A stretch of 49,856 nt of DNA from an uncultured bacterium (GTDB lineage: Bacteria > SAR324 > NAC60-12), in NCBI GenBank assembly GCA_964010765.1, contig CAXGMD010000015.1, forward strand, positions 1 through 49,856, given 5' to 3'. The notes under the pieces were generated by a model. That model saw only the letters and a list, made by a program, of their open reading frames with translations, was not told the origin of the DNA and searched no databases. Shown in pieces: positions 30,599 to 48,446 of this stretch (positions within the stretch are counted from its first letter, which is position 1; every line of letters begins with the position of its first letter). Made by a program: the position numbers and the translations under genes.

Positions 30599-31882
30599 AT
30601 GCAAATCAACCAATCATCCTCGCTTTTCGCCAGGGCTCAACTGCGCATTCCAGGTGGAGTGAACAGCCCTGTCCGAGCATTCAAATCTGTTCGCAGTACA
30701 CCTCTTTTCATCCGTGAGGGGAAAGGAAGCCACATTACCGATGTCGATGGCAATGACTACATCGACTATATTGGCTCTTGGGGGCCTCTTATTCTTGGAC
30801 ATTGTCACCCTGAAGTAATGGCCGCGATCGAAGAGGCGCTTCATCGAGGAGCTTCTTTTGGAACACCTACCGAAGGAGAAGTGCATCTAGCAGAAATGAT
30901 CTGTACTGCAGTGAACAGTGTCGAAATGGTCCGACTGACCAACTCTGGCACGGAAGCTTCCATGGCTGCGATCCGAGTTGCCAGAGGATATACGGGCCGA
31001 GATAAAATCATCAAATTTGAAGGATGCTACCACGGCAGTGTGGACTCTTTATTGGTCAAAGCGGGATCAGGTGTGATGACTCTTGGCCTTCCAGACTCCC
31101 CAGGAGTACCTGCGTCTTTCGTTGAACACACTCTCCTTGCCGATTTTAATAATCTCGAGTCGGTCACCGATCTCTTTGACGAATATGGTTCCGAGATCGC
31201 AGCCGTGGTTCTCGAACCTGTCGCAGGAAACATGGGAATGGTAGTGCCAGACCTAGATTTTCTGAAAGGATTGCGGAATCTCTGTGATGTTCATGGATCC
31301 TTGTTGGTGTTTGATGAGGTGATGACTGGCTTCCGAGTTGATTATGGAGGGGCTCAGGAGATCTTTGGGATCATCCCTGACATGACTATTTTCGGAAAAG
31401 TGATTGGAGGAGGTCTACCAGTTGGAGCTTATGGAGGCAGACAAGATGTGATGTTGATGGTCGCACCTGCTGGTCCAGTATATCAAGCTGGCACTTTATC
31501 TGGGAACCCACTGGCGGTAGCAGCGGGTCGCAAAACATTGGAAATTTTACAGGCTCCCGACACCTATGCGGAATTGAGTCGAAAATCCAACTGGCTGATC
31601 GATGAAATGAGGCAGAGCGCTGGACAAAATGGAATTCCATTTCAGACCAATGTCATGGGCGGGATGTTCGGCTTTTTCTTTGCTGAGAAACCGGTTCGCA
31701 ATTATCAGGATGCGGCTGAATCAGACCAGGATCGCTTCCGTAAATTCTTCATGGGTATGCTAAAGGAAGGGATTTACTTGGCGCCTTCTGCCTTTGAAAG
31801 TGGCTTTATCTCGATGGCTCATACGGAAGAAGACTTAGAAAAAACAGCAGCAGCTTGCCGCAAAGTGATGGCTACACTGTGA
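30599..31882 (+). CDS. hemL: Glutamate-1-semialdehyde 2,1-aminomutase
   Basis: PGGVNSPVRAF, SWGPLILGH, NSGTEA, FDEVMTGFR, GKVIGGGLPVG, YQAGTLSGNP. Confidence 0.97.
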   Translation: MQINQSSSLFARAQLRIPGGVNSPVRAFKSVRSTPLFIREGKGSHITDVDGNDYIDYIGSWGPLILGHCHPEVMAAIEEALHRGASFGTPTEGEVHLAEMICTAVNSVEMVRLTNSGTEASMAAIRVARGYTGRDKIIKFEGCYHGSVDSLLVKAGSGVMTLGLPDSPGVPASFVEHTLLADFNNLESVTDLFDEYGSEIAAVVLEPVAGNMGMVVPDLDFLKGLRNLCDVHGSLLVFDEVMTGFRVDYGGAQEIFGIIPDMTIFGKVIGGGLPVGAYGGRQDVMLMVAPAGPVYQAGTLSGNPLAVAAGRKTLEILQAPDTYAELSRKSNWLIDEMRQSAGQNGIPFQTNVMGGMFGFFFAEKPVRNYQDAAESDQDRFRKFFMGMLKEGIYLAPSAFESGFISMAHTEEDLEKTAAACRKVMATL

Positions 31883-34294: not shown

Positions 34295-36220
34295 TCACTC
34301 AGCTCCTAATCGAGATTTGCGTAGAGCCTCGGTGAAGGGACGTCCGTCATTTTCCTCAAGAATCGCAGTCTGCAATCGATTCTCATACACTTTCAAGAGC
34401 GTGTAGGTGTACTCTTCGACTCGCTTCATTCGACGAGGGAGTTCATCTTCTTCATAGTGACGACCAGAAGGAATCGGAGCCAACAATCGGTGAAAAATAA
34501 ATCGTAGAGACGCTTGGGGGTAGTGGATCATGTAAAGTAGGTAGGGGACCACTTGCTTGTCTTGTTCACGTTCCTCATAGATTCGTAAAAACAATAAAAC
34601 TAAGTGGTAGTAGTTGATCCCTCGGTGGACTTGGCGCTCTACAAAATGTCTGATCGAATCCATGTAGCGTTCCTTATTGAAACGCTGTTGACCTGTATGT
34701 GCTTCGTAATAGCGTGTAATCAGAATTGATGAGATGAAATAGCTCCACGCCTTGCGAAACTCTCCCAGTGGAAAGCGTTGACGCTGATCATTGCGTGAAA
34801 ATTCTTCAGCACAATTGATCAAAACTCCTGTCGTTGAGCGTGTTTGTTGAATCGACGGCAACCGAAATTGAAAATTTCTAAGTAGCTGCTGAAGACGCTG
34901 GACATGTTCATCTTCAAGGGGATTTTTTCCTGAATGCTGTTGGTTCAAGCTGATCCAACGATGCAGTCCTCGAAGCGCCTCCCAGAGCTTTAAGTAAATA
35001 GAGTTTTCATACTGTCCCTGCAGTTCCTTAACAAGGCCTGACCATTCTTTGACCGGTAAGCTTCTGGGCAATTGTTTAAGCAATTGAATCGGAAGTTGCT
35101 GGCGCTCTCGTTGTAATGCTAGTGAAATCGGCTGATTTGGTAACAGAAAAACCAGCGCTTTGCGTTCTTGTTGAAGCTGTCTCATCCGACTTGCCAACTG
35201 TTTCAGCATTTCTTCAGGCTCCCAATCCTCCTGACCCTCTTCCAGATTGGCTGCCAACTCTGAAATAAAACCAACCAACCCATCAATTTCTTCCAGCTTA
35301 TTGGAAGCTGCCCTGAGGTAATGTGCAGGATCTTCACGTTCAAACCTTGAATATGCTCGATGCTCATGTGGAAGTAGAAAATGAATTTGTCGATCCAACT
35401 TCTTGACCTCCAGCAAACTCTTTTGCAAAACATCCGTTGGATTACGGCGAAAGGTCTCCAGAAAGTCTTCAAAGGCTTGTTCAATCACTTGGTTGATTTG
35501 TTTTGATAGGGCCTGAGCTTCCCAAAGCTGTCTCCAGTGGGTCGTCAGTTGAGCCCGGATCTTCTCTCCATCTTTCTTGAGCGAGTATCGGCCCTGCTGT
35601 GCAAAACTTTGACACTGCTGGTCCCAGCCTGCGCTAGAAACTTCCTGAGTACGGAGGATGTCCAGCTTTTCAAGCATCCCCGCGCTCACACCCGACTGCT
35701 CGCTATCAGCACCCTGCTGGTAGAATTCCATTGGCAGTACGCTCTCATTCAGATAAATTTCTCCAATCAGCTTTGAAAACAGGGTGCGAGTGATGTTGAT
35801 GATCTGTTCACTAGTCTTGATCTCTTCTGGCAGAATAATAGTGATCGTGTAAACTCTTGAAATTTCATTGAAATCAAGTCTGGAAGCTGGCAAGGGCACC
35901 TTCCCTTGCAACTGTAAACCAGACTCAGACTCAAATTCATGAACAGGTAGAAAGCGGATTTGATGATTCGGATCGCGAAGCCTCAGGTCTAGGCTCGCAG
36001 AAAATTCGAGGATGGAAGGAATGAGGTGTTTGAGCAGTGTGACTGCCTTCTCCGGAAGTTTTGCTGAGAAGTGCAGGTTTTTGAGAACAAACTCCTTATC
36101 AAAAGTTTGCTCCGTTTTCTGAAGATCGTAGTCGCGGAGTTGCTGTTCAAGGACATCAAGGTTCCCAGGACGACGAAACCGCTCTGCAAAAAACTCTTCG
36201 CTGAAGCCTGAAACAGCCAT
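34295..36220 (-). CDS. Large hypothetical, mostly helical protein (641 aa)
   Basis: Long uninterrupted ORF filling the gap between pyrC and proB; no motif recognised. Confidence 0.75.
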   Translation of the reverse strand: MAVSGFSEEFFAERFRRPGNLDVLEQQLRDYDLQKTEQTFDKEFVLKNLHFSAKLPEKAVTLLKHLIPSILEFSASLDLRLRDPNHQIRFLPVHEFESESGLQLQGKVPLPASRLDFNEISRVYTITIILPEEIKTSEQIINITRTLFSKLIGEIYLNESVLPMEFYQQGADSEQSGVSAGMLEKLDILRTQEVSSAGWDQQCQSFAQQGRYSLKKDGEKIRAQLTTHWRQLWEAQALSKQINQVIEQAFEDFLETFRRNPTDVLQKSLLEVKKLDRQIHFLLPHEHRAYSRFEREDPAHYLRAASNKLEEIDGLVGFISELAANLEEGQEDWEPEEMLKQLASRMRQLQQERKALVFLLPNQPISLALQRERQQLPIQLLKQLPRSLPVKEWSGLVKELQGQYENSIYLKLWEALRGLHRWISLNQQHSGKNPLEDEHVQRLQQLLRNFQFRLPSIQQTRSTTGVLINCAEEFSRNDQRQRFPLGEFRKAWSYFISSILITRYYEAHTGQQRFNKERYMDSIRHFVERQVHRGINYYHLVLLFLRIYEEREQDKQVVPYLLYMIHYPQASLRFIFHRLLAPIPSGRHYEEDELPRRMKRVEEYTYTLLKVYENRLQTAILEENDGRPFTEALRKSRLGAE

Positions 36221-39223: not shown

Positions 39224-41056
39224 TCAGACCACTTGTGAGTATTTGACTTCTCGACTTTGGTGATACTCCTGATAAGCAAGTGCGCTATCTTTCCCCATGA
39301 AACGCTTAGCCAAGGCTAGCGGAATAGAAGGCACGTGGACAACAATCAGTCCATCCAATGCATTTGAAAAGTCTCGATCCACGTTGAAGGAGAGGAACTG
39401 AGCTCCTAAGCGCAGGTAATGACGTACCAGCACAGGAACACCCTTGTTATCCTGCTCAATCTCCGAAATTAGATTGCTAATTTCTTCTAGATCATTGGGG
39501 GTGTTGCTCAAACTGTTTTTTGTTGGGATAGACTGTGGATGTCGGTATGGAGTTCTTGGGCGAACTTCCTGAGACAGGCGGTGATCGAAATGGTTTGCTT
39601 TGAGGAAACGAAGTAAAAGATTCTTTGACGTCCTGGAGTAGCTGTGACTGATGCTAACGGGCCCAAAGAGATTCTGGTACTGAGGGTGCTGGACGATGAA
39701 TTCCCCGATCCCTCGCCAAAGCAAAGATAGAGGTGCTGCCTGTCTTTGAAAGTTAGGATGGATGAAAGAGCGCCCCATTTCGATTGCGGGATTCAGTTCT
39801 CCGACAAATCTTGAGCTCAGTTCAAACAGTGAATGAGTGTAAAGTCCATTCACTCCAGCAGTTCTAGTGATTCTATCGGCCAAACCGAGCCGATATCCAC
39901 CTGCCAACCTGCCCTCTGTCTTACTCCAGAGAAACAGGTGCAGATAGCTTGCGTCATAGGCATCTAAATCCAAAGACTTCCCCGATCCTTCTCCGACGGC
40001 ACGGAAGGTAATTTCTCGCAACCTGCCAATCTCATGCATCAACTCATCGACCTGAGTGTGATTTGCATAGCCTACAAGAAAATCCTCCGTTTCCACCAAC
40101 AACTGTTCCTGTGGCAGGCCTTCTACCTCCAAGCTCAACTGATTTCGGGCAGATGCCTGGGCAATTGGCCTTCGAACTGATCGAGACTGACGAAGCAATT
40201 TGGGTAATGGAATCCATTGTTTGTGTCGTCGATTCGCAAGGAAGTAAGTCTTGAATCGAAGGTAATCAATCAGTTTTTCGTTGGACTCAAATTCCTGCAA
40301 CCGCTTGTGAGGAACACCTTTCCCAACGAAAATCTCAACAGAGGACCCTTGCTTGTTGAAAAGTTCTCGGATCAATAACCCGGTCCGCAATCTTGGATGA
40401 ATCAGACCAAGCAACTGGAAGAGGATGCTGTTCTGACCTCGAAAAAACATCGGCAGGACCGTCGCTCTTGTCATTCGCAAAATTGCTGAAACATGAGGTG
40501 TCCACGCTGAATCCATGATGCGCAGTGACTTCAAGTGGAGATAAGAGACCTCACCAGCGGGGAAAATGACTAGCGCTCCCCCTACACGCACAAAGCGCAC
40601 TGCTTCCCGTAGTGTTTTGCTGTTGGCTGGACTGGAAGACAGATTTCCGAAGGGATCGACTGGGAAAATCCAGGGCTGGATTTCGGGGATCTTGTTGAGC
40701 AGATAATTGCCCATCATCCGGAAGTCTGGGCGAACTTGCTTCAGTAACGTGCCGAGGACGACAGCTTCAAGCCCACCAAAGGGATGATTGGCCACAATGA
40801 CGAGAGGGCCCTTGGCAGGGATGCGTTGCAGATCCTCCTCTGAAATTCGAGGCTCAACCTTCAGTGCGCTGAGTGAGGTCTCCCAGAAATTAGCTGATGT
40901 CAGGTCGACTGGAAGTTGCTCATATTCTCGATTCAAGCGGCTTATTCCAGTCAGAATTTCTAGCTCGGGAGCCAATCTGTTGAATGGCTTAGGAAGGATC
41001 TCACTTAGGCTGATCAAAGGGTCTTCAATGTTGGTTTGCGTTAGCTTACGAACCAT
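39224..41056 (-). CDS. olsF: PlsC-type O-acyltransferase plus GNAT N-acyltransferase fusion (OlsF-like ornithine/amino-lipid synthase)
   Basis: N-terminal NHPFGGLE, FPAGEVS; C-terminal EIGRLREITFRAVGEG, DLDAYD, GGYRLG, EMGRSF. Confidence 0.8.
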   Translation of the reverse strand: MVRKLTQTNIEDPLISLSEILPKPFNRLAPELEILTGISRLNREYEQLPVDLTSANFWETSLSALKVEPRISEEDLQRIPAKGPLVIVANHPFGGLEAVVLGTLLKQVRPDFRMMGNYLLNKIPEIQPWIFPVDPFGNLSSSPANSKTLREAVRFVRVGGALVIFPAGEVSYLHLKSLRIMDSAWTPHVSAILRMTRATVLPMFFRGQNSILFQLLGLIHPRLRTGLLIRELFNKQGSSVEIFVGKGVPHKRLQEFESNEKLIDYLRFKTYFLANRRHKQWIPLPKLLRQSRSVRRPIAQASARNQLSLEVEGLPQEQLLVETEDFLVGYANHTQVDELMHEIGRLREITFRAVGEGSGKSLDLDAYDASYLHLFLWSKTEGRLAGGYRLGLADRITRTAGVNGLYTHSLFELSSRFVGELNPAIEMGRSFIHPNFQRQAAPLSLLWRGIGEFIVQHPQYQNLFGPVSISHSYSRTSKNLLLRFLKANHFDHRLSQEVRPRTPYRHPQSIPTKNSLSNTPNDLEEISNLISEIEQDNKGVPVLVRHYLRLGAQFLSFNVDRDFSNALDGLIVVHVPSIPLALAKRFMGKDSALAYQEYHQSREVKYSQVV

Positions 41057-41147: not shown

Positions 41148-41717
41148 CTAGAGATTTTGTTTGATCAATTGAACAGCACGATCAATCTCTGCTTGGCTTA
41201 GCTGTCCATCCTTGAAAAAAACCACTTTTCCAGCTCTATTAAGGATGATCACTGCAGAGCTCTCTGGAGCTAATCCCCATGCATTGCGAATCACTCCCTC
41301 CTTGTCCAGTACGAAGCCAGGTACGATGTACTTCCGCTTACGGTCTTCCACAGTGCGCTGGACGATACCAGAGGTGCCGAACATAGCATCGTCCAAATTG
41401 ATGATGTTGAATGTCTGATGGGGATTACCCGGGAGTAAGTCAAACTGTTCCTCCAAAAGTCGATCAATGAAGTCATCATTCAAGGATGCCGCTGAACGGG
41501 TCCCAGCCAGATGGTAAATTGTGAACACCTTTCCACGAAGTTCCCGACTGTTCCACGGAACATAGCTGATCTGCTCTCCCTCAAGATTGAGTTTTCCAAA
41601 TTCTGTTAGGCTAACTTCTGGTAGACTTTGTCCAAGCTTGATCTCAGAGGCAGTGCTGACTCCAGCTGAGAAAACCACCAAAAAAATGAAGGATAATAAT
41701 TTAAGAATCAGTTGCAT
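41148..41717 (-). CDS. ytfJ: YtfJ-family exported protein
   Basis: Signal peptide; ISYVPWNSRELRGKV..YHLAG, IINLDDAMFGT, WGLAPESSAVIIL, KDGQLS resemble E. coli YtfJ. Confidence 0.82.
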   Translation of the reverse strand: MQLILKLLSFIFLVVFSAGVSTASEIKLGQSLPEVSLTEFGKLNLEGEQISYVPWNSRELRGKVFTIYHLAGTRSAASLNDDFIDRLLEEQFDLLPGNPHQTFNIINLDDAMFGTSGIVQRTVEDRKRKYIVPGFVLDKEGVIRNAWGLAPESSAVIILNRAGKVVFFKDGQLSQAEIDRAVQLIKQNL

Positions 41718-41797
41718 CGGTAATTTAAATTGATCATTTCGGGGATACAAAACAGACGACCTTTACTGACTGTAAAAGCCAAATATTCCAAAAAGTG

Positions 41798-41837
41798 ACA
41801 TCATAAATAATAACTGGACTTATCATTAAACTTTCAT
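41798..41837 (+). promoter_or_regulatory. Pho-box-like repeats upstream of the Mpo1-like gene
   Basis: TTATCAT-taaa-CTTTCAT (41820-41837) plus in-phase ACATCAT at 41798; compare CTGTCAT-N4-CTGTCAY. Confidence 0.55.
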
Positions 41838-41976
41838 TAGTTCATTTTTAGTTCGCAAAACTGCCAACTTAATATTTGCACGGAAGCTGACACCAAGGAA
41901 GGTGTACTTAGTGCAGAGGGTTTTGGCGTTTTCCACTTCACCCTTATTCGTTCGAACCATCACCCCTGGAGTCGAC

Positions 41977-42609
41977 GTGAAACAGTTCCTCGAAACTCTT
42001 CGCGAACAGCGTTGGGATGACCATCGCTTCTATCACCACTGCCGAATCAACCAATCCCTGCATCTTATTAGTGCTCTATCTTTTCTGGGTTCATATGTGA
42101 TGCTGTTCATCAACCCAGTCTGGTCTGCAATCGTGGCTTGGACGTTTTCAATGACCACAAGACAGGCTGGACACTTCTTCTTCGAGCCCCACAGCTACGA
42201 TCATGTGAACCGGGCTTCCCATGAGCACAAGGAAGAAATCAAGGTCGGCTACAACCTAAAGCGCAAAGTTGTTCTGCTCAGTATCTGGGCACTGTTGCCG
42301 ATGGCAATTTACTTCAATCCAGGCTTTTTGGGAATTCTACCGGAACACAATGATTGGCTTAGCTTCATAGAAGCAGTGGGCACAGCTTGGCTTTATTTGG
42401 GCATTGCGGCTGTCTTGTTTCGCGGCATTCAGTTGTTCGTTCAACAGGATCTCAAGACTGGATTTGTTTGGATGACAAAAATCATCACAGATCCTTTTCA
42501 CGATGTCTACATCTACTATAGAGCTCCGCTACATCTACTGCGAGGGGAACGCTTTGAGCGAGATCCTGTAATGGACATGGGTGATCTTGAGCCAATTCCT
42601 AATCACTAG
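41977..42609 (+). CDS. Mpo1/DUF962-like membrane protein
   Basis: DHRFYHHCRINQSLH and RQAGHFFFE histidine motifs, several TM helices; GGAG RBS before GTG 41977. Confidence 0.7.
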   Translation: MKQFLETLREQRWDDHRFYHHCRINQSLHLISALSFLGSYVMLFINPVWSAIVAWTFSMTTRQAGHFFFEPHSYDHVNRASHEHKEEIKVGYNLKRKVVLLSIWALLPMAIYFNPGFLGILPEHNDWLSFIEAVGTAWLYLGIAAVLFRGIQLFVQQDLKTGFVWMTKIITDPFHDVYIYYRAPLHLLRGERFERDPVMDMGDLEPIPNH

Positions 42610-44245
42610 TCTTTTCAGGCCAACCTAGGGTTTCACGTAGAATCTGTAAGCGAATGCTACGATGCGTTAGCTTCGGATTCTGCCACCACCAGCCATCCTC
42701 TGACATTTTTTTTGCCGCTGACACGAAGCGGTCCAGAACTGCCTGGAATTCAGTTTCTCCGTAGTTGAGACTGAAAATCAGCCGTCCTGTACCAACCCAG
42801 CTGAGAGCCAGTCCTTCGGCACGTAAATAAAATTGGAGTAGCCAGTGATAGCGTCCTGGTTGAGTATAGCTGATTGTCCAAACAGAGGACATATTTGTGG
42901 CTTGAATAGGGAAATCAAAATTCCTCATGGTGTGGTTGAATTTTTCACAACGTTGATTCCATCTTTCGTCCAGCCCCTCGTAAAGAGCTTGGATCTCGGG
43001 CTTTTCAATCTCATCCAGAAATGCCTTCATTGCTGACAGCACCACAGGATGGGCATTGAATGTCCCACGAGCAAAGCAGATGTCTGCAGGACGGTTTTCT
43101 TTCCAGCGTTTCATCCAGTGATGTTTGCCACAAACCACTCCAACAGGATAACCGCCACCAAGCGTCTTTCCGTAAGTAACGAGATCCGCTTGAATCCCAA
43201 AATATTCTTGTGCACCACCAGGGGCTAATCTGAATCCCAGAAACACTTCATCAAAAATCAAAGCAATTCCTTTTTCAGTGCATACTTCTCTCAATTGCTT
43301 CAGCCATGATGTGTAGGACGTTCGATCATATTGAGCCTTGCGGCTTCCATCTAGCAGCGTTGAATCTCCAGGGGCATTCCGATTAGGATGGATTGCCTGT
43401 AAAGGATTTACTAAAACACAGGCAATATTCTTACGAGATCGCAATACTTGTAGGGAGCGCTCACTCATATCAGCTAAGGTATATGTTTCATGTGGTGGTT
43501 GTGGGTTTCCAGGCCCTGGCTGAACATCCTCCCACCACCCGTGATAGGCTCCACAGAAACGAACAAGATGCGTGCGCCTCGTATGGTAGCGGGCTAGCCG
43601 GACAGCTTGCATCACAGCCTCTGTTCCAGACATGTGAAATGAAACTTCATCCATGCCACTGATTTTACAGAGTCGAGATGCGTTACTGGCCACATGCGGA
43701 TGATAAACCCCTAATGCTGGGCCGAGAGGAACACCTTCTTCTAGGCCTATTCGCATAGTACGCTTATAAAAGTCCGAACCAAAAAGGTTTACTCCATAGG
43801 AACCTGTCAGGTCATAAAATTGACAATCATCCAAGTCTGTCAAAATGACGCCATCAAATGACTTTGCAACGCTTCCAACCTTGAGGTGCTCTCTAGCGTA
43901 GGGGCTGAATGCAAATGGAATTCGATAAACTGATGTGAACTGCAAATCACTCAGGTGCTCCTTGGCCTCTGTGGTTAAACTAAGTGTTTTTTTATGTTTT
44001 TGTAGTGTTCGAGCAAGGCTATTAAATCCATTTTTCCTTTTCTCAGCCACATCATCTGGGGCTCCATCTGCAATAAAGAAAAGCTCTTCACCTAATGCAT
44101 AACCGGGCAATAAGCGTGCGAGAAATTTTGCTATTCGGGAATGACCCGCTAATGATCTGTGCTTTGCTCGGGACAGTTGGATTCTACGATAAATTTTGGG
44201 ACTGAGCGCAGCCAGTAGGCTAAGACTAATGAGAGTGGTTTCCAA
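42599..44245 (-). CDS. Class-III PLP aminotransferase (GSA-aminomutase-like paralog) with N-terminal extension
   Basis: DLTGSYG, MSGTEAVMQAVRLAR, GAYHG, FDEVFLGFR, YGKTLGGGYPVG, GTFNAHP; hydrophobic N-terminus; AGGA RBS before TTG. Confidence 0.88.
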   Translation of the reverse strand: METTLISLSLLAALSPKIYRRIQLSRAKHRSLAGHSRIAKFLARLLPGYALGEELFFIADGAPDDVAEKRKNGFNSLARTLQKHKKTLSLTTEAKEHLSDLQFTSVYRIPFAFSPYAREHLKVGSVAKSFDGVILTDLDDCQFYDLTGSYGVNLFGSDFYKRTMRIGLEEGVPLGPALGVYHPHVASNASRLCKISGMDEVSFHMSGTEAVMQAVRLARYHTRRTHLVRFCGAYHGWWEDVQPGPGNPQPPHETYTLADMSERSLQVLRSRKNIACVLVNPLQAIHPNRNAPGDSTLLDGSRKAQYDRTSYTSWLKQLREVCTEKGIALIFDEVFLGFRLAPGGAQEYFGIQADLVTYGKTLGGGYPVGVVCGKHHWMKRWKENRPADICFARGTFNAHPVVLSAMKAFLDEIEKPEIQALYEGLDERWNQRCEKFNHTMRNFDFPIQATNMSSVWTISYTQPGRYHWLLQFYLRAEGLALSWVGTGRLIFSLNYGETEFQAVLDRFVSAAKKMSEDGWWWQNPKLTHRSIRLQILRETLGWPEKTSD

Positions 44246-44265
44246 AAGGTTCCTGGGTTGATGTG

Positions 44266-44305
44266 TTGACTAAATTTTTACAACTAAATGAAGGACCATT
44301 GACAA
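44266..44305 (-). promoter_or_regulatory. Four Pho-box-like heptads upstream of the aminotransferase
   Basis: Minus strand TTGTCAA-tggt-CCTTCAT-ttag-TTGTAAA-aatt-TAGTCAA, 11-bp period. Confidence 0.5.
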
Positions 44306-45177
44306 ATTTTCTTAAAAAGCTTGCTCAGCAGGAAGATCTCAATTTTTTGCTGACTAATCGAATTCCTAGAATCACCCTAACTCGTTTTATGGGTTGGTGG
44401 AGTAAGCTAGAGCATCCCTGGATTGTAAAAAGTTCCATTGCGCTCTGGCAAACCTTCAGCGATTTAGATCTTTCTGAGTCCAATACCAAGACTTTTAAGA
44501 GCCTGCATGACTGTTTTACAAGGGAGTTAAGACCGGGTCTGCGACCGATTCATCCCAATCCAAACATCCTAACCTCGCCGTGTGATGCGATTGTTGGCTG
44601 CTCAGGAAAAATTGAAGAGAATCAGATTTTCCAAGCCAAGGGCTTTCCCTACAGTCTCCAAAGTTTGCTGGGAGAGAGTCCATTTAGTCGGGGTTGGGAT
44701 GAAAAGTTGGAGGGTGGCCATTATCTCACACTGCGCTTGACCTCCAGCATGTACCATCGGTTTCATGCTCCCTGTGATGTGCAGCTAACACATGTGACTT
44801 ATATCAGTGGCGACACTTGGAATGTAAACCCAATTGCCTTGAAGCGCGTGGAAAGGCTTTTCTGCAAGAACGAGAGAATCGTTATGCACTTGCAGACTGC
44901 GGCAGCAGTTGATTTTTTAATGGTTCCGGTTGCAGCCGTATTAGTTGCAAGCATGAGACTGCATGCGCTAGATGTTTTGTTGAATCTTCGCTATCAAGGC
45001 CCGAACGAGGTTCCCTGCCAATCCAACTATCTCAAAGGTCAGGAATTGGGCTGGTTTGAGCACGGCTCTACAATAATTTTGCTATTCAACAAAGATGTGG
45101 AGCCTCTCCCTGAATTACAATTTGGAAAACAGGTACGAATGGGGCAACCCCTCCTGAAATGGACTACAACCAACTAA
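44299..45177 (+). CDS. psd: Phosphatidylserine-decarboxylase-family pyruvoyl enzyme
   Basis: FTRELRPGLRP, SPCD, YHRFHAP, WNVN, KNER, FEHGST cleavage motif. Start uncertain (TTG 44299 after AAGGA, or GTG 44263). Confidence 0.88.
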   Translation: MTNFLKKLAQQEDLNFLLTNRIPRITLTRFMGWWSKLEHPWIVKSSIALWQTFSDLDLSESNTKTFKSLHDCFTRELRPGLRPIHPNPNILTSPCDAIVGCSGKIEENQIFQAKGFPYSLQSLLGESPFSRGWDEKLEGGHYLTLRLTSSMYHRFHAPCDVQLTHVTYISGDTWNVNPIALKRVERLFCKNERIVMHLQTAAAVDFLMVPVAAVLVASMRLHALDVLLNLRYQGPNEVPCQSNYLKGQELGWFEHGSTIILLFNKDVEPLPELQFGKQVRMGQPLLKWTTTN

Positions 45178-46235
45178 TCTGAAGTAGGCAAGATGGTTGG
45201 GGAGTCGAATTCGTTGAACTGGTACCCGAATTTACCACTTTCAATAGGAGCCAGATGGGACAGGAAAGTCTGGAAGCAGGCATCCCAATCCCAATCCATA
45301 GAGCTTTGATGAACAACATCTCTATCTAATTTTAAAGCATTGAGGCAGGCCTCTTTGAGATTTTCTGATAATACTCCATCCACTCCTGGCTTCAGGACAT
45401 CTTGAGGACCAGGAACTGGGAAGGCTGCTACTGGTGTTCCTGAGGCAATTGACTCCAGTAGCACATTCCCAAAGGTGTCTGTCTTAGAAGGAAACACAAA
45501 AACATCGCTATCAGCATAGAGTTTGGCCAATTCCTCTCCAAATTTGTAACCGAGCCAAACAGCTTCGGAATACTTTCTCTGCATTGATTCTCGAGCGGGG
45601 CCATCACCCACAATGATTTTAGTGCCCGGCAAATCAAGCCTGAGGAAAGCCTCAATATTTTTTTCGACAGCGACGCGGCCTGTGCAAAGCCAATAAGGAC
45701 GCGGGCCATAGGAATCTTCCTGGGGACGTGGTCGGAAGAGTTCATGGTTGACTCCTCTGTTCCAGATAACCGTCTTTTGGTGAACCCTGTGCTGATTGAG
45801 AAGCCGCCCCATCGTAGGAGTTGGTACCATCACTCTTTCCGCCGCCCCATGAAACCACTTTAAGAAGCTGTATCCCCAGGACAGTGGGATGGGTAGCCGT
45901 TCTTGAACATACTCAGGAAAGCGAGTGTGGTAGCTTGTGGTGAATGGAATCCTCAAGTGAGATAACCAAATTCTAGCGAATATCCCCAAAGATCCTTCGG
46001 TAGCAATGTGAACTGCATCAGGAGAAAATTCCCTCAATATATTCATCATTTTCCAAGGCGTTGTTGCCAAGCGTATTTCGGGATAACTTGGAAGAGGGAA
46101 GGTCGGGTAATCTTGCGGTTGAATCACCAGAACCTCGTGATTTTTGGCTCTGCCAATTTCAACCATTGTCGATAGAGAACGGACGACTCCGTTGACCTGG
46201 GGGTGCCAGGCGTCAGTTACTAGGGCGAAACGCAT
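45174..46235 (-). CDS. agt: GT4 glycosyltransferase, Agt-like glucosyl/glucuronosyl-diacylglycerol synthase
   Basis: TDAWHPQVNGVVR, HIATEG, SYHTRFPEY, GRVAVEKN, FPSKTDTFGNVLLE; downstream of plcP. Confidence 0.85.
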   Translation of the reverse strand: MRFALVTDAWHPQVNGVVRSLSTMVEIGRAKNHEVLVIQPQDYPTFPLPSYPEIRLATTPWKMMNILREFSPDAVHIATEGSLGIFARIWLSHLRIPFTTSYHTRFPEYVQERLPIPLSWGYSFLKWFHGAAERVMVPTPTMGRLLNQHRVHQKTVIWNRGVNHELFRPRPQEDSYGPRPYWLCTGRVAVEKNIEAFLRLDLPGTKIIVGDGPARESMQRKYSEAVWLGYKFGEELAKLYADSDVFVFPSKTDTFGNVLLESIASGTPVAAFPVPGPQDVLKPGVDGVLSENLKEACLNALKLDRDVVHQSSMDWDWDACFQTFLSHLAPIESGKFGYQFNEFDSPTILPTSD

Positions 46236-46277
46236 GGGGTGTATGCCTTTCCTTTAAAATGAATAGCTTAACGAACC

Positions 46278-47105
46278 TCACTGAGGAACGGCTTCTCGAC
46301 TCATTTTCTTTTCTTTTTCCTGGTTCTTCAGATTTTTCATCGCTTCGGAAATGACATCATCATCATGATGGTGCCAATCAATAATTCTAAACTCTCCATC
46401 TTGAGTTTCTACCAACGCTGTACACGATTCCACCCAGTCACCATCGTTCATATAAACCACGTTGCCAATTTTACGAATTTCAGGTGTATGGATGTGCCCA
46501 CAAATCACCCCATCGTAACCTTGCTTTTCGCAGTAGGTGGCAACATTCGATTCAAACTTGAAGACAAAGTTAGTTGCCCGCTTAACCTGTGCCTTTAAGA
46601 TTCTACTAAGTGGCCAATACGCAAAGCCAATCGACCGACGGATGATGTTGATCCAGCGGTTCAGAAACAGCGCGACATCGTATGCTCGGTCGCCTAATGC
46701 GTAAAGCCAGGTGTTGAAAGACTCAATTCCATCGAAAAGATCTCCGTGGATTACCAAGTATCGCTGTCCTCTTTTGCTTTGATGTATACATTCATTTGAC
46801 AGCTCTATATTACCAAACCTCATATCGAAACTGAGCCAGTTACGTAAAGCTTCATCATGATTTCCAAGGATGTAGTGTACCTTGGTACCCCGTTTGGCCA
46901 TTGTTAGAATACGGCGAATGACGTTAGAATGTTCTTGTGGCCAGTAAACCTTGCGCTTCAGTTTCCAGACATCAATGATGTCTCCAACAAGATAGAGTTG
47001 ATCACACTCATTGTGCTTCAAGAAATGGCAGAGTTGGTTGGCTTGCGTACCCTTGGTCCCAAGATGAATATCTGAGATAAAAATAGCTCGGTAATAGTCT
47101 TTCAT
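46278..47105 (-). CDS. plcP: PlcP-type phospholipase C (LpxH-like metallophosphoesterase)
   Basis: ISDIHLG, VGDIID, GNHD (His, versus GNRD in LpxH), HGDLFD, CGHIH, NDGDWVESCTAL; paired with agt. AAGGAG before ATG 47105. Confidence 0.88.
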   Translation of the reverse strand: MKDYYRAIFISDIHLGTKGTQANQLCHFLKHNECDQLYLVGDIIDVWKLKRKVYWPQEHSNVIRRILTMAKRGTKVHYILGNHDEALRNWLSFDMRFGNIELSNECIHQSKRGQRYLVIHGDLFDGIESFNTWLYALGDRAYDVALFLNRWINIIRRSIGFAYWPLSRILKAQVKRATNFVFKFESNVATYCEKQGYDGVICGHIHTPEIRKIGNVVYMNDGDWVESCTALVETQDGEFRIIDWHHHDDDVISEAMKNLKNQEKEKKMSREAVPQ

Positions 47106-47157
47106 CGGCCACGACTCCTTCATGGAAAGTTTGCACTACCAGCAATTTAGGGGAGTA

Positions 47158-47231: not shown

Positions 47232-48446
47232 ATGTCAGAAGTAGTTGTCGTTGGCGGTGGCCCAGCAGGTCTATCGGCAGCATTGATTTGTGCGAGAAGA
47301 GGCCTTGACACAACTATTGTGGAGAAGCGCACTTTTCCTGTGATCAAAGCCTGTGGAGAAGGGTTGATGCCAGGTGGAGTTGATGCCCTGAAGCACTTGG
47401 TTCCTCAGGAATTGATCAACAAAATGGAATACCAGAAGTTTTCAGGAATTCGATATATTGCTCCAAACGGTGAGTGCACATCAGGCTATTTTGGCAAAGG
47501 CGATGGGTGGGGAATTGAACGCTCTGAACTTTCAAAACTACTCAGTCAGGCCGCTGAACAAGAGCCAAAAATCAAAATCCTTGAAAATACGGTTGCTACA
47601 TTGAAAGGCTCACCAGAGCAACCTATCGTCCATTTCAATCACCAAACCCTGAGGCCAAATCTTCTGATCGCTGCAGACGGATTGCACTCTCCCATTAGAA
47701 GTTGGGCTGGATTAAATGGTCTCCCCTCCAAACTAAAGCGATGGGGCTTGAGGCAGCATTATCAAATTACACCATGGACCAATTTGGTAGAGGTCCACTG
47801 GTCAAAGGATATGGAGGCCTATGTCACACCTGTATCCCCGAATACTGTTGGCGTTGCTATTCTAAGTCGCCGAGAATTGATATCAAGTTGGCAAAAGCCA
47901 ATTTCTTTGAAAGAAACAGTACAAGTATTCAGTAATTTAGGACCAAAACTGCTTTTGAGCGAAGCTAAGGATCAATTGATTGGAATCGGTCCGCTTCATC
48001 AAACAGTAAAACGAACTGGAACTGGGAAAGTGGTATTGGTGGGGGATGCGGCAGGATATTTGGATGCAATCACAGGAGAAGGAATCAGTAATGCCATGGA
48101 ACAAGCTTTGCTGGTGGATCGAATACTGGAAAAGCAAAAAGAGAAGCCAAGGTTAGATGAGCTGGTGATTGATTATTCCAACCAACTACCTGCCTTGATG
48201 AGAAGCTACTATTGGCTCACTCGGCTCACTCTGCTTTTGCATCGTCGTCCATCATTGGTCAACCAAGTTGTTAAAGTCTTTCAGAAAACTCCTTGGTTGT
48301 TCAATTACCTACTGGATTTAAATTCTGCTCGGAGTTTTTCCGAAGCAGCTAGCCATTCACTCCAAATTCATGGAAGAAATCATGGAAGTGAACTACTCAA
48401 AGCTTTTATTAGAAGAAGTATCGGAGAGATTAGAAAGAAATCCTGA
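47232..48446 (+). CDS. FAD-dependent oxidoreductase (geranylgeranyl-reductase/FixC-like)
   Basis: GGGPAG, KACGEGLMP, AADGLHS, VGDAAGYLDAITGEGI. Confidence 0.88.
   Translation: MSEVVVVGGGPAGLSAALICARRGLDTTIVEKRTFPVIKACGEGLMPGGVDALKHLVPQELINKMEYQKFSGIRYIAPNGECTSGYFGKGDGWGIERSELSKLLSQAAEQEPKIKILENTVATLKGSPEQPIVHFNHQTLRPNLLIAADGLHSPIRSWAGLNGLPSKLKRWGLRQHYQITPWTNLVEVHWSKDMEAYVTPVSPNTVGVAILSRRELISSWQKPISLKETVQVFSNLGPKLLLSEAKDQLIGIGPLHQTVKRTGTGKVVLVGDAAGYLDAITGEGISNAMEQALLVDRILEKQKEKPRLDELVIDYSNQLPALMRSYYWLTRLTLLLHRRPSLVNQVVKVFQKTPWLFNYLLDLNSARSFSEAASHSLQIHGRNHGSELLKAFIRRSIGEIRKKS

Follow-up and report, generated by a model that had tools for sequence, protein, structure and literature searches.

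A conserved aminotransferase, Mpo1-like protein and decarboxylase paralogue beside a lipid glycosyltransferase: a candidate module for tailoring membrane-lipid head groups

What could a membrane protein, an aminotransferase and a decarboxylase do together in a cluster of lipid genes? The question is raised by a stretch of 49,856 nucleotides from an uncultured SAR324 bacterium (assembly GCA_964010765.1, contig CAXGMD010000015.1; the whole stretch is called the window below), in which three tightly packed genes encode an Mpo1-like protein (mpo1L), a class-III aminotransferase (AT3) and a paralogue of phosphatidylserine decarboxylase, PSD (psdL). An original prediction, made from the window itself, had placed this trio within a phosphate-starvation lipid cluster and proposed that it builds or tailors a phosphorus-free, nitrogen-containing lipid from diacylglycerol or ornithine-lipid precursors; the gene content and coordinates that it gave held. 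Our analysis favored the reading, to which we assign a probability of roughly 0.6, that the trio is the core of a conserved Pho-regulated module tailoring membrane-lipid head groups with a GT4 lipid glycosyltransferase (here Agt-like and next to PlcP), the enzymes acting in series on one head group.

Conservation, fusion and transfer of the three-gene set

Relatives of AT3 were found at a minimum of 553 loci in species genomes, and the best 80 were compared in detail. Co-occurrence of the three families was borne out in a sample of 301 Burkholderiales genomes, where AT3 was detected in 34, mpo1L in 35 and psdL in 35, the psdL carriers including all 34 carriers of AT3. All three genes were present in 33 genomes and none in 265; the three exceptions were one contig-end case and two remnants, and presence was all-or-none in 298. 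The genes were adjacent in nearly all of the best 80 loci where the contig had room, usually in the order psdL(-), AT3(+), mpo1L(-) and then a GT4 gene, and in six of seven more distant loci. Order and strand varied while the set held in loci L006, L009, L078, L084 and L088. L084 was the sole locus among those fetched with a co-directional trio, located 3' of a PHP-domain-GT4 fusion. A GT4 gene lay within a few kb of the trio in 66 loci. These findings demonstrated that the trio is a conserved unit, with a lipid glycosyltransferase of the GT4 type as its constant partner.

The gene directly upstream of psdL-mpo1L-AT3 in L084 (3518-6196, + strand) encodes an 892-aa protein fused to the GT4 domain, the N-terminal ~450 residues of which start with a PHP-type metal-phosphoesterase-like motif, recognized by eye and with no Pfam match. 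This protein could be the equivalent of PlcP and Agt combined in a single chain.

Fusions also linked the trio to glycosyltransferases. The metagenome protein P0151 (1151 aa) combined GT4, AT3 and mpo1L in one chain, with matches of E 2e-36, 4e-151 and 3e-26 (mpo1L profile), respectively. Eukaryotic proteins of ~1120-1300 aa (P0155, P0157, P0160, P0163 and ten further), found in EukProt and MMETSP and as a gene model of Bigelowiella, bore a C-terminal AT3 domain that was 41-45% identical to the window AT3. In those of about 1250 aa, the identity was 42-45% over more than 90% of the length of AT3, including the N-terminal motif and the Trp-rich tail. This domain was preceded by a GT2-like part (Pfam 19.2 bits, below the cut-off, in one sequence; Atlas score 0.95) and a membrane region. 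AT3 has thus acquired a fused glycosyltransferase on two occasions, each time from a different family. The apparent fusions P0122, P0138, P0143 and P0148 looked like frame errors or chimeric gene calls and were not used.

A second kind of fusion involved mpo1L, which was repeatedly joined to a methyltransferase with PmtA as the best family (137 bits, below the equivalog cut-off; next family 85 bits). The PmtA-like gene, a feature of soil metagenomes, was found at 79 metagenome loci; in 42 of these it was located directly upstream of mpo1L, and 11 of the 42 had both in a single open frame. Where these contigs had room, AT3 was present in 26/26 and psdL in 22/22, an Agt-like GT4 gene preceded in 16/29, and plcP was located a few kb away in several of the loci. 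When the methyltransferase-mpo1L fusion was searched for in the 301 Burkholderiales genomes, only its mpo1L half matched at the module, whereas matches to the methyltransferase half were confined to other places in a few genomes, indicating that the fusion belongs to other lineages. That an enzyme methylating lipid amines is optionally the last member of the module is an argument for a primary amine on the product.

The unit seems to have moved between phyla. Within the phylum of the host, 88 species genomes were in the collection and AT3 was found in 8 of them. The identity of AT3 to the window copy was 70-73% in Limnohabitans and 56-60% in other genera of the host's own family. A quick maximum-likelihood tree nested the AT3 of the window and of its near-twin locus L003 inside the Limnohabitans clade (SH-aLRT 95-98), apart from the same-family copies. 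As the host belongs to another phylum, this nesting points to horizontal transfer. The identity pattern was alike for all three genes, and their GC content equaled the background (~47% in the window), which together fit transfer of the unit as a whole, long ago. The region 41900-45200 was present almost word for word in marine metagenome runs of 13 studies, and six salt-marsh RNA-library runs held 64-80% of its words; the closest protein relatives, by contrast, are those of freshwater Limnohabitans. Contigs of 4/4 salt-marsh RNA-library runs spanned the whole region, although contigs cannot show strand, level or transcription.

Four records of metagenome-assembled genomes, titled Klebsiella pneumoniae (L012), Akkermansia muciniphila (L019), Chitinophaga pinensis (L067) and Synechococcus sp. 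(L075), carried a trio that groups with Comamonadaceae. L012 and L075 were placed in the AT3 tree, and the coordinates and identities of L019 were those of the Limnohabitans locus L018. The labels of these four records look wrong, or the bins mixed.

The conservation could be explained without any common pathway, if three unrelated Pho-regulon genes were held together by shared regulation and common descent. The alternating strands of the genes agree with this, as does the origin of most compared loci in one bacterial order, by which the synteny may partly be a matter of ancestry. The set nevertheless stayed together through the changes of order and strand, crossed phylum boundaries as a unit, has members joined in domain fusions, and was present or absent as a whole in 298 of the 301 genomes sampled. 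An association of this kind, without a common pathway, is very improbable.

Family assignments of the three enzymes

The decarboxylase paralogue passed the PSD models of both Pfam and TIGRFAM (Table 1). The GST self-cleavage site was found in the window psdL as FEHGSTIILLF, with G268, S269 and T270 invariant, and alignment to the E. coli enzyme (PDB 6L06) showed that the N-terminal membrane helices are kept and that D108, H165 and H168, the equivalents of Asp90, His144 and His147, are invariant. psdL therefore has the family, length, membrane helices, Asp/His/His set and GST site of E. coli PSD (PDB 6L06, 7CNW-7CNZ). It differs from that enzyme in the replacement of Tyr137 by Arg and of Ser166 by Asn, and in its constant pairing with AT3 and mpo1L. 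The Arg was found in 19/19 psdL orthologues and Tyr in 5/5 housekeeping copies; the Asn was likewise found in 19/19 orthologues. In E. coli PSD, according to the accessible part of PMC7952604, Tyr137 contacts the lipid phosphate, and this position is Tyr in 85% of the family and Arg in ~15%. A possible role of this Arg in psdL is to bind an anionic group that is not a phosphate.

A second psd was identified in the host genome (G000:C64) between ftsH and fabI. It was 35% identical to psdL and matched E. coli PSD better (E 1e-50 versus 1.6e-33 for psdL). Two psd copies were also present in 4/4 other carriers examined, confirming that psdL is a divergent extra copy in genomes that also have a housekeeping psd.

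These results bear on a more conventional role, in which psdL would be a PSD isozyme for phosphate starvation, the PmtA-like enzyme would make phosphatidylcholine (PC), and AT3 and mpo1L would act on the head groups of phosphatidylserine (PS), phosphatidylethanolamine (PE) or phosphatidylglycerol, interconverting them or stripping nitrogen and carbon ahead of phosphate recovery by PlcP. The textbook conversion of PE to PC is that of PSD and then PmtA, psdL lies above the PSD equivalog cut-off (177.1 versus 111.75 bits) with its catalytic residues and membrane-binding N-terminus all kept, and a gene for the lysophospholipid transporter LplT is a neighbor in 31 loci. Arg at position 137 is, moreover, a known minority state of true PSDs, as far as the accessible text of PMC7952604 goes. 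Making extra phospholipid under Pho control beside PlcP would, however, oppose phosphorus sparing, the constant partner is a glycosyltransferase that is even fused to AT3 and mpo1L in P0151, and a housekeeping psd is already present in all carriers examined. We consider such a phospholipid function improbable.

The aminotransferase AT3 exceeded the cut-off of the class-III family more than threefold in score (Table 1). K360 of the motif YGKTLGGG, presumably the lysine that binds pyridoxal phosphate (PLP), was invariant in 24 AT3 sequences and aligned with FGKVIGGG of HemL. The protein was conserved over its full length (~70% identity in Limnohabitans), including a hydrophobic/basic N-terminal extension of ~90 aa and a Trp-rich C-terminus. 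The canonical hemL, which the original prediction had located at 30599, was confirmed at 30599-31882 by the HemL equivalog model TIGR00713 (607.8 bits versus a cut-off of 527.3). AT3 scored only 155.8 bits with the same model, far below the cut-off, and shared 27% identity with the true HemL, in agreement with the claim that it is not the canonical HemL.

Its best solved relative was the aminotransferase (AMT) domain of MycA (PDB 6kfm, E 1.2e-46, residues 90-458), followed at E 3e-33 and weaker by glutamate-1-semialdehyde (GSA) aminomutases, and its next-best long relatives were AMT domains of polyketide synthases and nonribosomal peptide synthetases. By these comparisons, AT3 is nearest to the beta-ketoacyl aminotransferase domain of mycosubtilin synthase and not to HemL. 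AT3 and the MycA domain belong to a common subgroup of class III resembling GSA aminomutase (GSAM). The MycA domain (PDB 6KFM) acts on lipid beta-keto substrates, aminating a beta-ketoacyl thioester presented by a carrier protein inside a megasynthase, whereas AT3 stands alone in a lipid context, with its N-terminal extension and Trp-rich tail. No PP-binding, ketosynthase or condensation domain was found near AT3 in the window neighborhood or in annotated relatives.

An amino-sugar glycolipid made without psdL would suit this aminotransferase as well. The GT4 enzyme would make hexosyl- or glucuronosyl-diacylglycerol, the Mpo1-like protein would create a keto or aldehyde group by oxidizing a hydroxyl of the sugar and AT3 would aminate that group, with N-methylation in some lineages, while psdL would be co-regulated but chemically separate, for example in PE supply. 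The fusions GT4-AT3-mpo1L and GT2-like-AT3 leave out psdL, a gene for UDP-glucose dehydrogenase (Ugd) is found in 21 loci, and C-6' sugar aminotransferases were among the weaker PDB matches of AT3; the nearest relative with a solved structure aminates a derivative of a beta-keto acid, a class that would include a 4-keto-uronic acid. Yet psdL is linked as tightly as the others, being present with all 34 AT3 genes of Burkholderiales and in every metagenome locus with room, and it shares a divergent Pho-box promoter region with AT3, although this route gives it no role. An amino-sugar lipid made without psdL is unlikely in our view, though somewhat less so than the phospholipid function above.

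For mpo1L, the longest open reading frame (ORF) starts at 41902 (235 aa), and a GTG at 41977 gives the shorter protein listed in Table 1; relatives align from residue ~25, which fits the GTG start. Its identity as an Mpo1-like protein, as originally predicted, stood in part: the profile PF06127 matched weakly over the family core, and the score stayed below the Pfam threshold of 24, at 18.1 bits (E 0.0029) for the window protein, 21.1 for L084 and 15.3 for P0151. Look-alike clusters in the Atlas were described as DUF962/Mpo1-like (score 0.98), with PF06127 in just 12-14% of their members. His, Asp and Glu residues were invariant across 27 mpo1L sequences. The AlphaFold2 model was a helical membrane bundle (pLDDT 86.9) without any match in the PDB at E <= 0.001 by Foldseek; the VIA wide fold search reached at most Z 5.1, over ~47 residues, which is noise level for helical proteins, and the sequence had only chance-level matches in the PDB (E >= 0.56). 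Since the family match is weak and a fold match absent, the putative oxidase role is drawn from the conserved His and acidic residues. Yeast Mpo1, an Fe2+-dependent 2-hydroxy fatty acid dioxygenase of PF06127, is likewise small, polytopic and membrane-bound and shares the trait of conserved His and acidic residues; mpo1L differs from it in an extra C-terminal half bearing an invariant TDPFHD motif and, in some lineages, in the PmtA-like fusion. Complex prediction for AT3 and mpo1L, both supplied as alignments, scored 0.00 in two runs and was uninformative either way.

One of the nearest look-alike clusters of mpo1L in the Atlas, from outside the window, was recorded as 55% viral (Uroviricota), which hints at phage-borne copies of the mpo1L type.

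Phosphate-starvation context and layout of the locus

The predicted phosphate-starvation context was supported by the orthologous loci, both in their Pho-regulon neighbors and in their Pho boxes. Genes for PhoX were neighbors in 15 loci, PPK2 in 17, PhoU-PhoR-PhoB-pst in ~14, Ppx in 7 and plcP in 13, along with an OlsB-like gene in 7 and the Ugd and LplT genes mentioned above; L083 had a phytase-like gene and a Na/Pi transporter nearby. The LplT homologue (for example L015:13578-14819, - strand, with 30 further loci) scored 358 bits versus a cut-off of 297 and adjoined the module GT4 gene in Limnohabitans and relatives, and Ugd was often the next gene after it.

Pho boxes were scored as the number of matching letters out of 10 in two TGTCA-type half-sites 11 bases apart. 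The divergent region between psdL and AT3 contained a pair of at least 8/10 letters in 72/80 loci, compared with 318/3823 control windows (8.3%), the orthologous site being TTCAT-N5-TGTCA. Upstream of mpo1L, 75/80 loci reached at least 8/10, and 66/80 reached at least 9/10, when compared to 124/4000 controls (3.1%) at the latter level; the consensus was TGTCAC-N5-TTTCAC. Controls reaching 8/10 for the two sites amounted to 8-11%. The motif survived where protein identity was down to 55-65%. The Pho-box-like repeats that had been noted upstream of two of the genes are thus clear at the same positions in orthologues and weak in the window itself, where the array facing AT3 overlaps the 5' end of the psdL ORF. 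The upstream region of pstS in the host genome held only a similarly degenerate array, no clear Pho box was seen by eye upstream of the window plcP, and PhoX was not found in the host genome, which is 92% complete. From the strong sites of the orthologues beside the weak sites of the window, Pho control of the window copy is likely.

Table 1. Genes and Pho-box-like elements of the window around the three-gene set
Feature	Position	Strand	Basis
OlsF-like bifunctional acyltransferase	39224..41056	-	Pfam Acyltransf_2 + Acetyltransf_5; N-terminal O-acyltransferase, C-terminal GNAT N-acyltransferase
YtfJ-family protein	41148..41750	-	PF09695 E 1.5e-46; TIGR01626 152.4 bits (cut-off 151.1)
Weak Pho-box-like direct repeat, 5' of mpo1L	41820..41837	+	3 mismatches to E. 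coli-type consensus
mpo1L, Mpo1-like/DUF962-like histidine-rich polytopic membrane protein	41977..42609	+	PF06127 below cut-off; 210 aa from GTG
AT3, class-III (GSAM/AMT-like) PLP aminotransferase, 548 aa	42599..44245	-	PF00202 101.4 bits (cut-off 30.5), E 6e-29
Pho-box-like array, TGTCA-type pentamers, 11-bp spacing, facing AT3	44267..44310	-	Read from sequence
psdL, pyruvoyl-type PSD paralogue, 304 aa	44263..45177	+	PF02666 184.3 bits (cut-off 22); TIGR00163 177.1 bits (cut-off 111.75)
GT4 lipid-type glycosyltransferase (Agt-like)	45174..46235	-	Pfam GT4/GT1 domains
PlcP-like metallophosphoesterase (PlcP/LpxH type), downstream of the GT4 gene	46278..47123	-	Metallophos match; LpxH models below cut-off

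The arrangement of the window locus is given in Table 1. mpo1L and AT3 are convergent with 3' ends overlapping by 11 bases, and AT3 and psdL are divergent, with starts 17 bases apart by the longest ORFs and a shared region of at most ~90 bases. As the strands of the trio are +,-,+, the genes do not form one operon, and co-transcription as a single unit is excluded at this locus.

The predicted flanks were recovered with some changes. On one side, the agt-plcP pair was present as a GT4 gene and a metallophosphoesterase gene. The GT4 gene was the single match in the genome search and the sole GT4 of this type found in the host genome; it was 42-47% identical to plcP-adjacent or module-adjacent GT4 genes of other loci, and the PlcP-like protein was 44-60% identical to phosphoesterases adjoining GT4 in other loci. 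The adjacent pair (45174-47123 in the window) was also found in L003, L014, L030, L033, L034, L051 and L083. On the other side, the olsF-like gene was present, although its score with the OlsF model NF052615 (404.8 bits) was under the cut-off of 620. A ytfJ gene, which had gone unmentioned, sits between it and mpo1L and shares a divergent upstream region with the latter, a layout repeated in L003. Among the 80 best loci, an olsF match adjoined the trio only in the window and in L003, and the OlsF-like gene is a local neighbor, not a constant part of the module. The proposed link to ornithine lipid did not extend beyond these two loci.

Two further genes of the window were noted. A flavoprotein of the geranylgeranyl-reductase family (47232-48446, + strand; TIGR02032, 116 bits, below the cut-off) is divergent from the PlcP-like gene and may be another lipid-related gene of the neighborhood. 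An ORF of 641 aa (34295-36220, - strand) matched no Pfam or NCBIfam family at E <= 0.001 and had only chance-level matches (Phycobilisome, E 0.079).

A proposed head-group route and its place among known lipids

The PlcP-Agt part of the locus corresponds to a known system of lipid renovation, described for PlcP of Sinorhizobium and for Agt of Agrobacterium, SAR11, Pseudomonas aeruginosa and Burkholderia cenocepacia, in which a metallophosphoesterase gene and a GT4 gene stand side by side in a Pho-regulon context, as in the window. To our knowledge, the products of these systems, monoglycosyldiacylglycerol (MGDG) and diacylglycerol bearing glucuronic acid (GADG), carry no nitrogen. The B. cenocepacia operon is plcP-agt-dagK, according to the accessible part of PMC13691135. 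The available portions of the described systems mentioned no PSD paralogue, aminotransferase or Mpo1-like protein, and the words 'decarboxylase', 'aminotransferase' and 'aminomutase' had 0 occurrences in the accessible text of PMC13691135 and PMC13700237. No description of the trio was found in print either, by full-text searches that ran without most subscription journals, in line with the original statement that no characterized pathway has this combination. The trio is apparently an undescribed extension of phosphate-starvation lipid remodeling.

What the comparisons established is a conserved and mobile set of four to five genes with Pho boxes and intact catalytic motifs, made up of the glycosyltransferase, mpo1L, AT3, psdL and sometimes the PmtA-like methyltransferase. 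The substrate, order of steps and product that we infer for this extension are as follows. PlcP would free diacylglycerol from phospholipids, and the GT4 enzyme would add a sugar or sugar-acid head group. The Mpo1-like protein, as a putative iron-type oxidase, would turn a carboxylate-adjacent or sugar hydroxyl into a carbonyl, which the membrane-tethered AT3 would convert to an amine or amino acid. The resulting serine-like head group would lose its carboxyl through psdL to leave an ethanolamine-like primary amine, and in some lineages a PmtA-like methyltransferase would N-methylate this amine. Overall, the pathway would yield an amine-carrying lipid without phosphorus that takes the place of PE or PC. 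In the version of this series that starts at a carboxylate-adjacent hydroxyl, each enzyme would carry out a reaction characteristic of its family, from a keto acid through a serine-like amino acid to the amine.

Several points weigh against this reading. The compared loci are mutually related and mostly from one bacterial order, so that their counts overstate independence. The Mpo1-like assignment lies under the Pfam cut-off, and fold searches of the model gave no solved relative. As Arg at position 137 occurs in ~15% of ordinary PSDs in the accessible part of PMC7952604, psdL could simply use PS. Both Pho-box sites of the window have just 8/10 letters, a level reached by 8-11% of random windows, and the consensus pattern had 5 matches in the window versus 5.87 expected by chance. 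All three proteins are without a known product or activity, and their genes lie on alternating strands. The chemistry is also demanding, as no clean route could be derived from glucuronosyl-diacylglycerol. A pyruvoyl decarboxylase needs a free alpha-amino acid, and we know of no glycolipid that offers one.

Three candidate reactions were discarded on chemical grounds. A pyruvoyl enzyme acting directly on a 4-amino-uronic acid would have to decarboxylate a beta-amino acid, with no stabilization of the carbanion. In pyranosyl glucuronic acid, alpha-oxidation at C5 would cleave the glycosidic bond. The alpha-amine of ornithine lipid is acylated, which makes this lipid unsuitable as a psdL substrate.

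A more specific and clearly more tentative proposal, which we hold to be possible but on balance doubtful, is a new class of phosphorus-free lipids. An alpha-hydroxy-acid head group made by the glycosyltransferase would be converted to a keto acid, then to serine-like and ethanolamine-like and, in some lineages, choline-like forms. This would be a phosphorus-free series parallel to PS, PE and PC, which bacteria of freshwater, soil and sea would have acquired by gene transfer.

A precedent is the route of BtaA and BtaB to diacylglyceryl trimethylhomoserine (DGTS), a Pho-regulated pathway by which diacylglycerol receives a phosphorus-free, amino-acid-derived and N-methylated head group. Some relatives of the module have an equivalent of the methyltransferase step, but the enzyme families are wholly different and a decarboxylation is implied in the module. 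PF11899, which we take to represent BtaA, gave no match in 5/5 carrier genomes, a weak negative since 14 control genomes gave none either. Algae and protists have a related fusion of aminotransferase and glycosyltransferase, which could be relevant to how they make their non-DGTS betaine lipids.

Substitution of phosphorus-free lipids is a major route of microbial survival in phosphate-poor water and soil and alters sensitivity to antibiotics and phages, and the known bacterial substitutes (glycolipids, ornithine lipid and DGTS) come from a handful of enzymes. The module described here is spread over ~11% of the sampled Burkholderiales, soil metagenome lineages and a marine member of another phylum, and has eukaryotic relatives. 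As culturable carriers exist, with strains of Limnohabitans, Hydrogenophaga, Variovorax and Malikia represented at the loci, the question is directly testable. Should the product prove to be an analogue of PE or PC with an amine and no phosphorus, environmental lipidomics would gain a lipid class and unidentified 'aminolipids' an explanation, and a first function would be provided for bacterial Mpo1-like proteins and for a distinct PSD subfamily.

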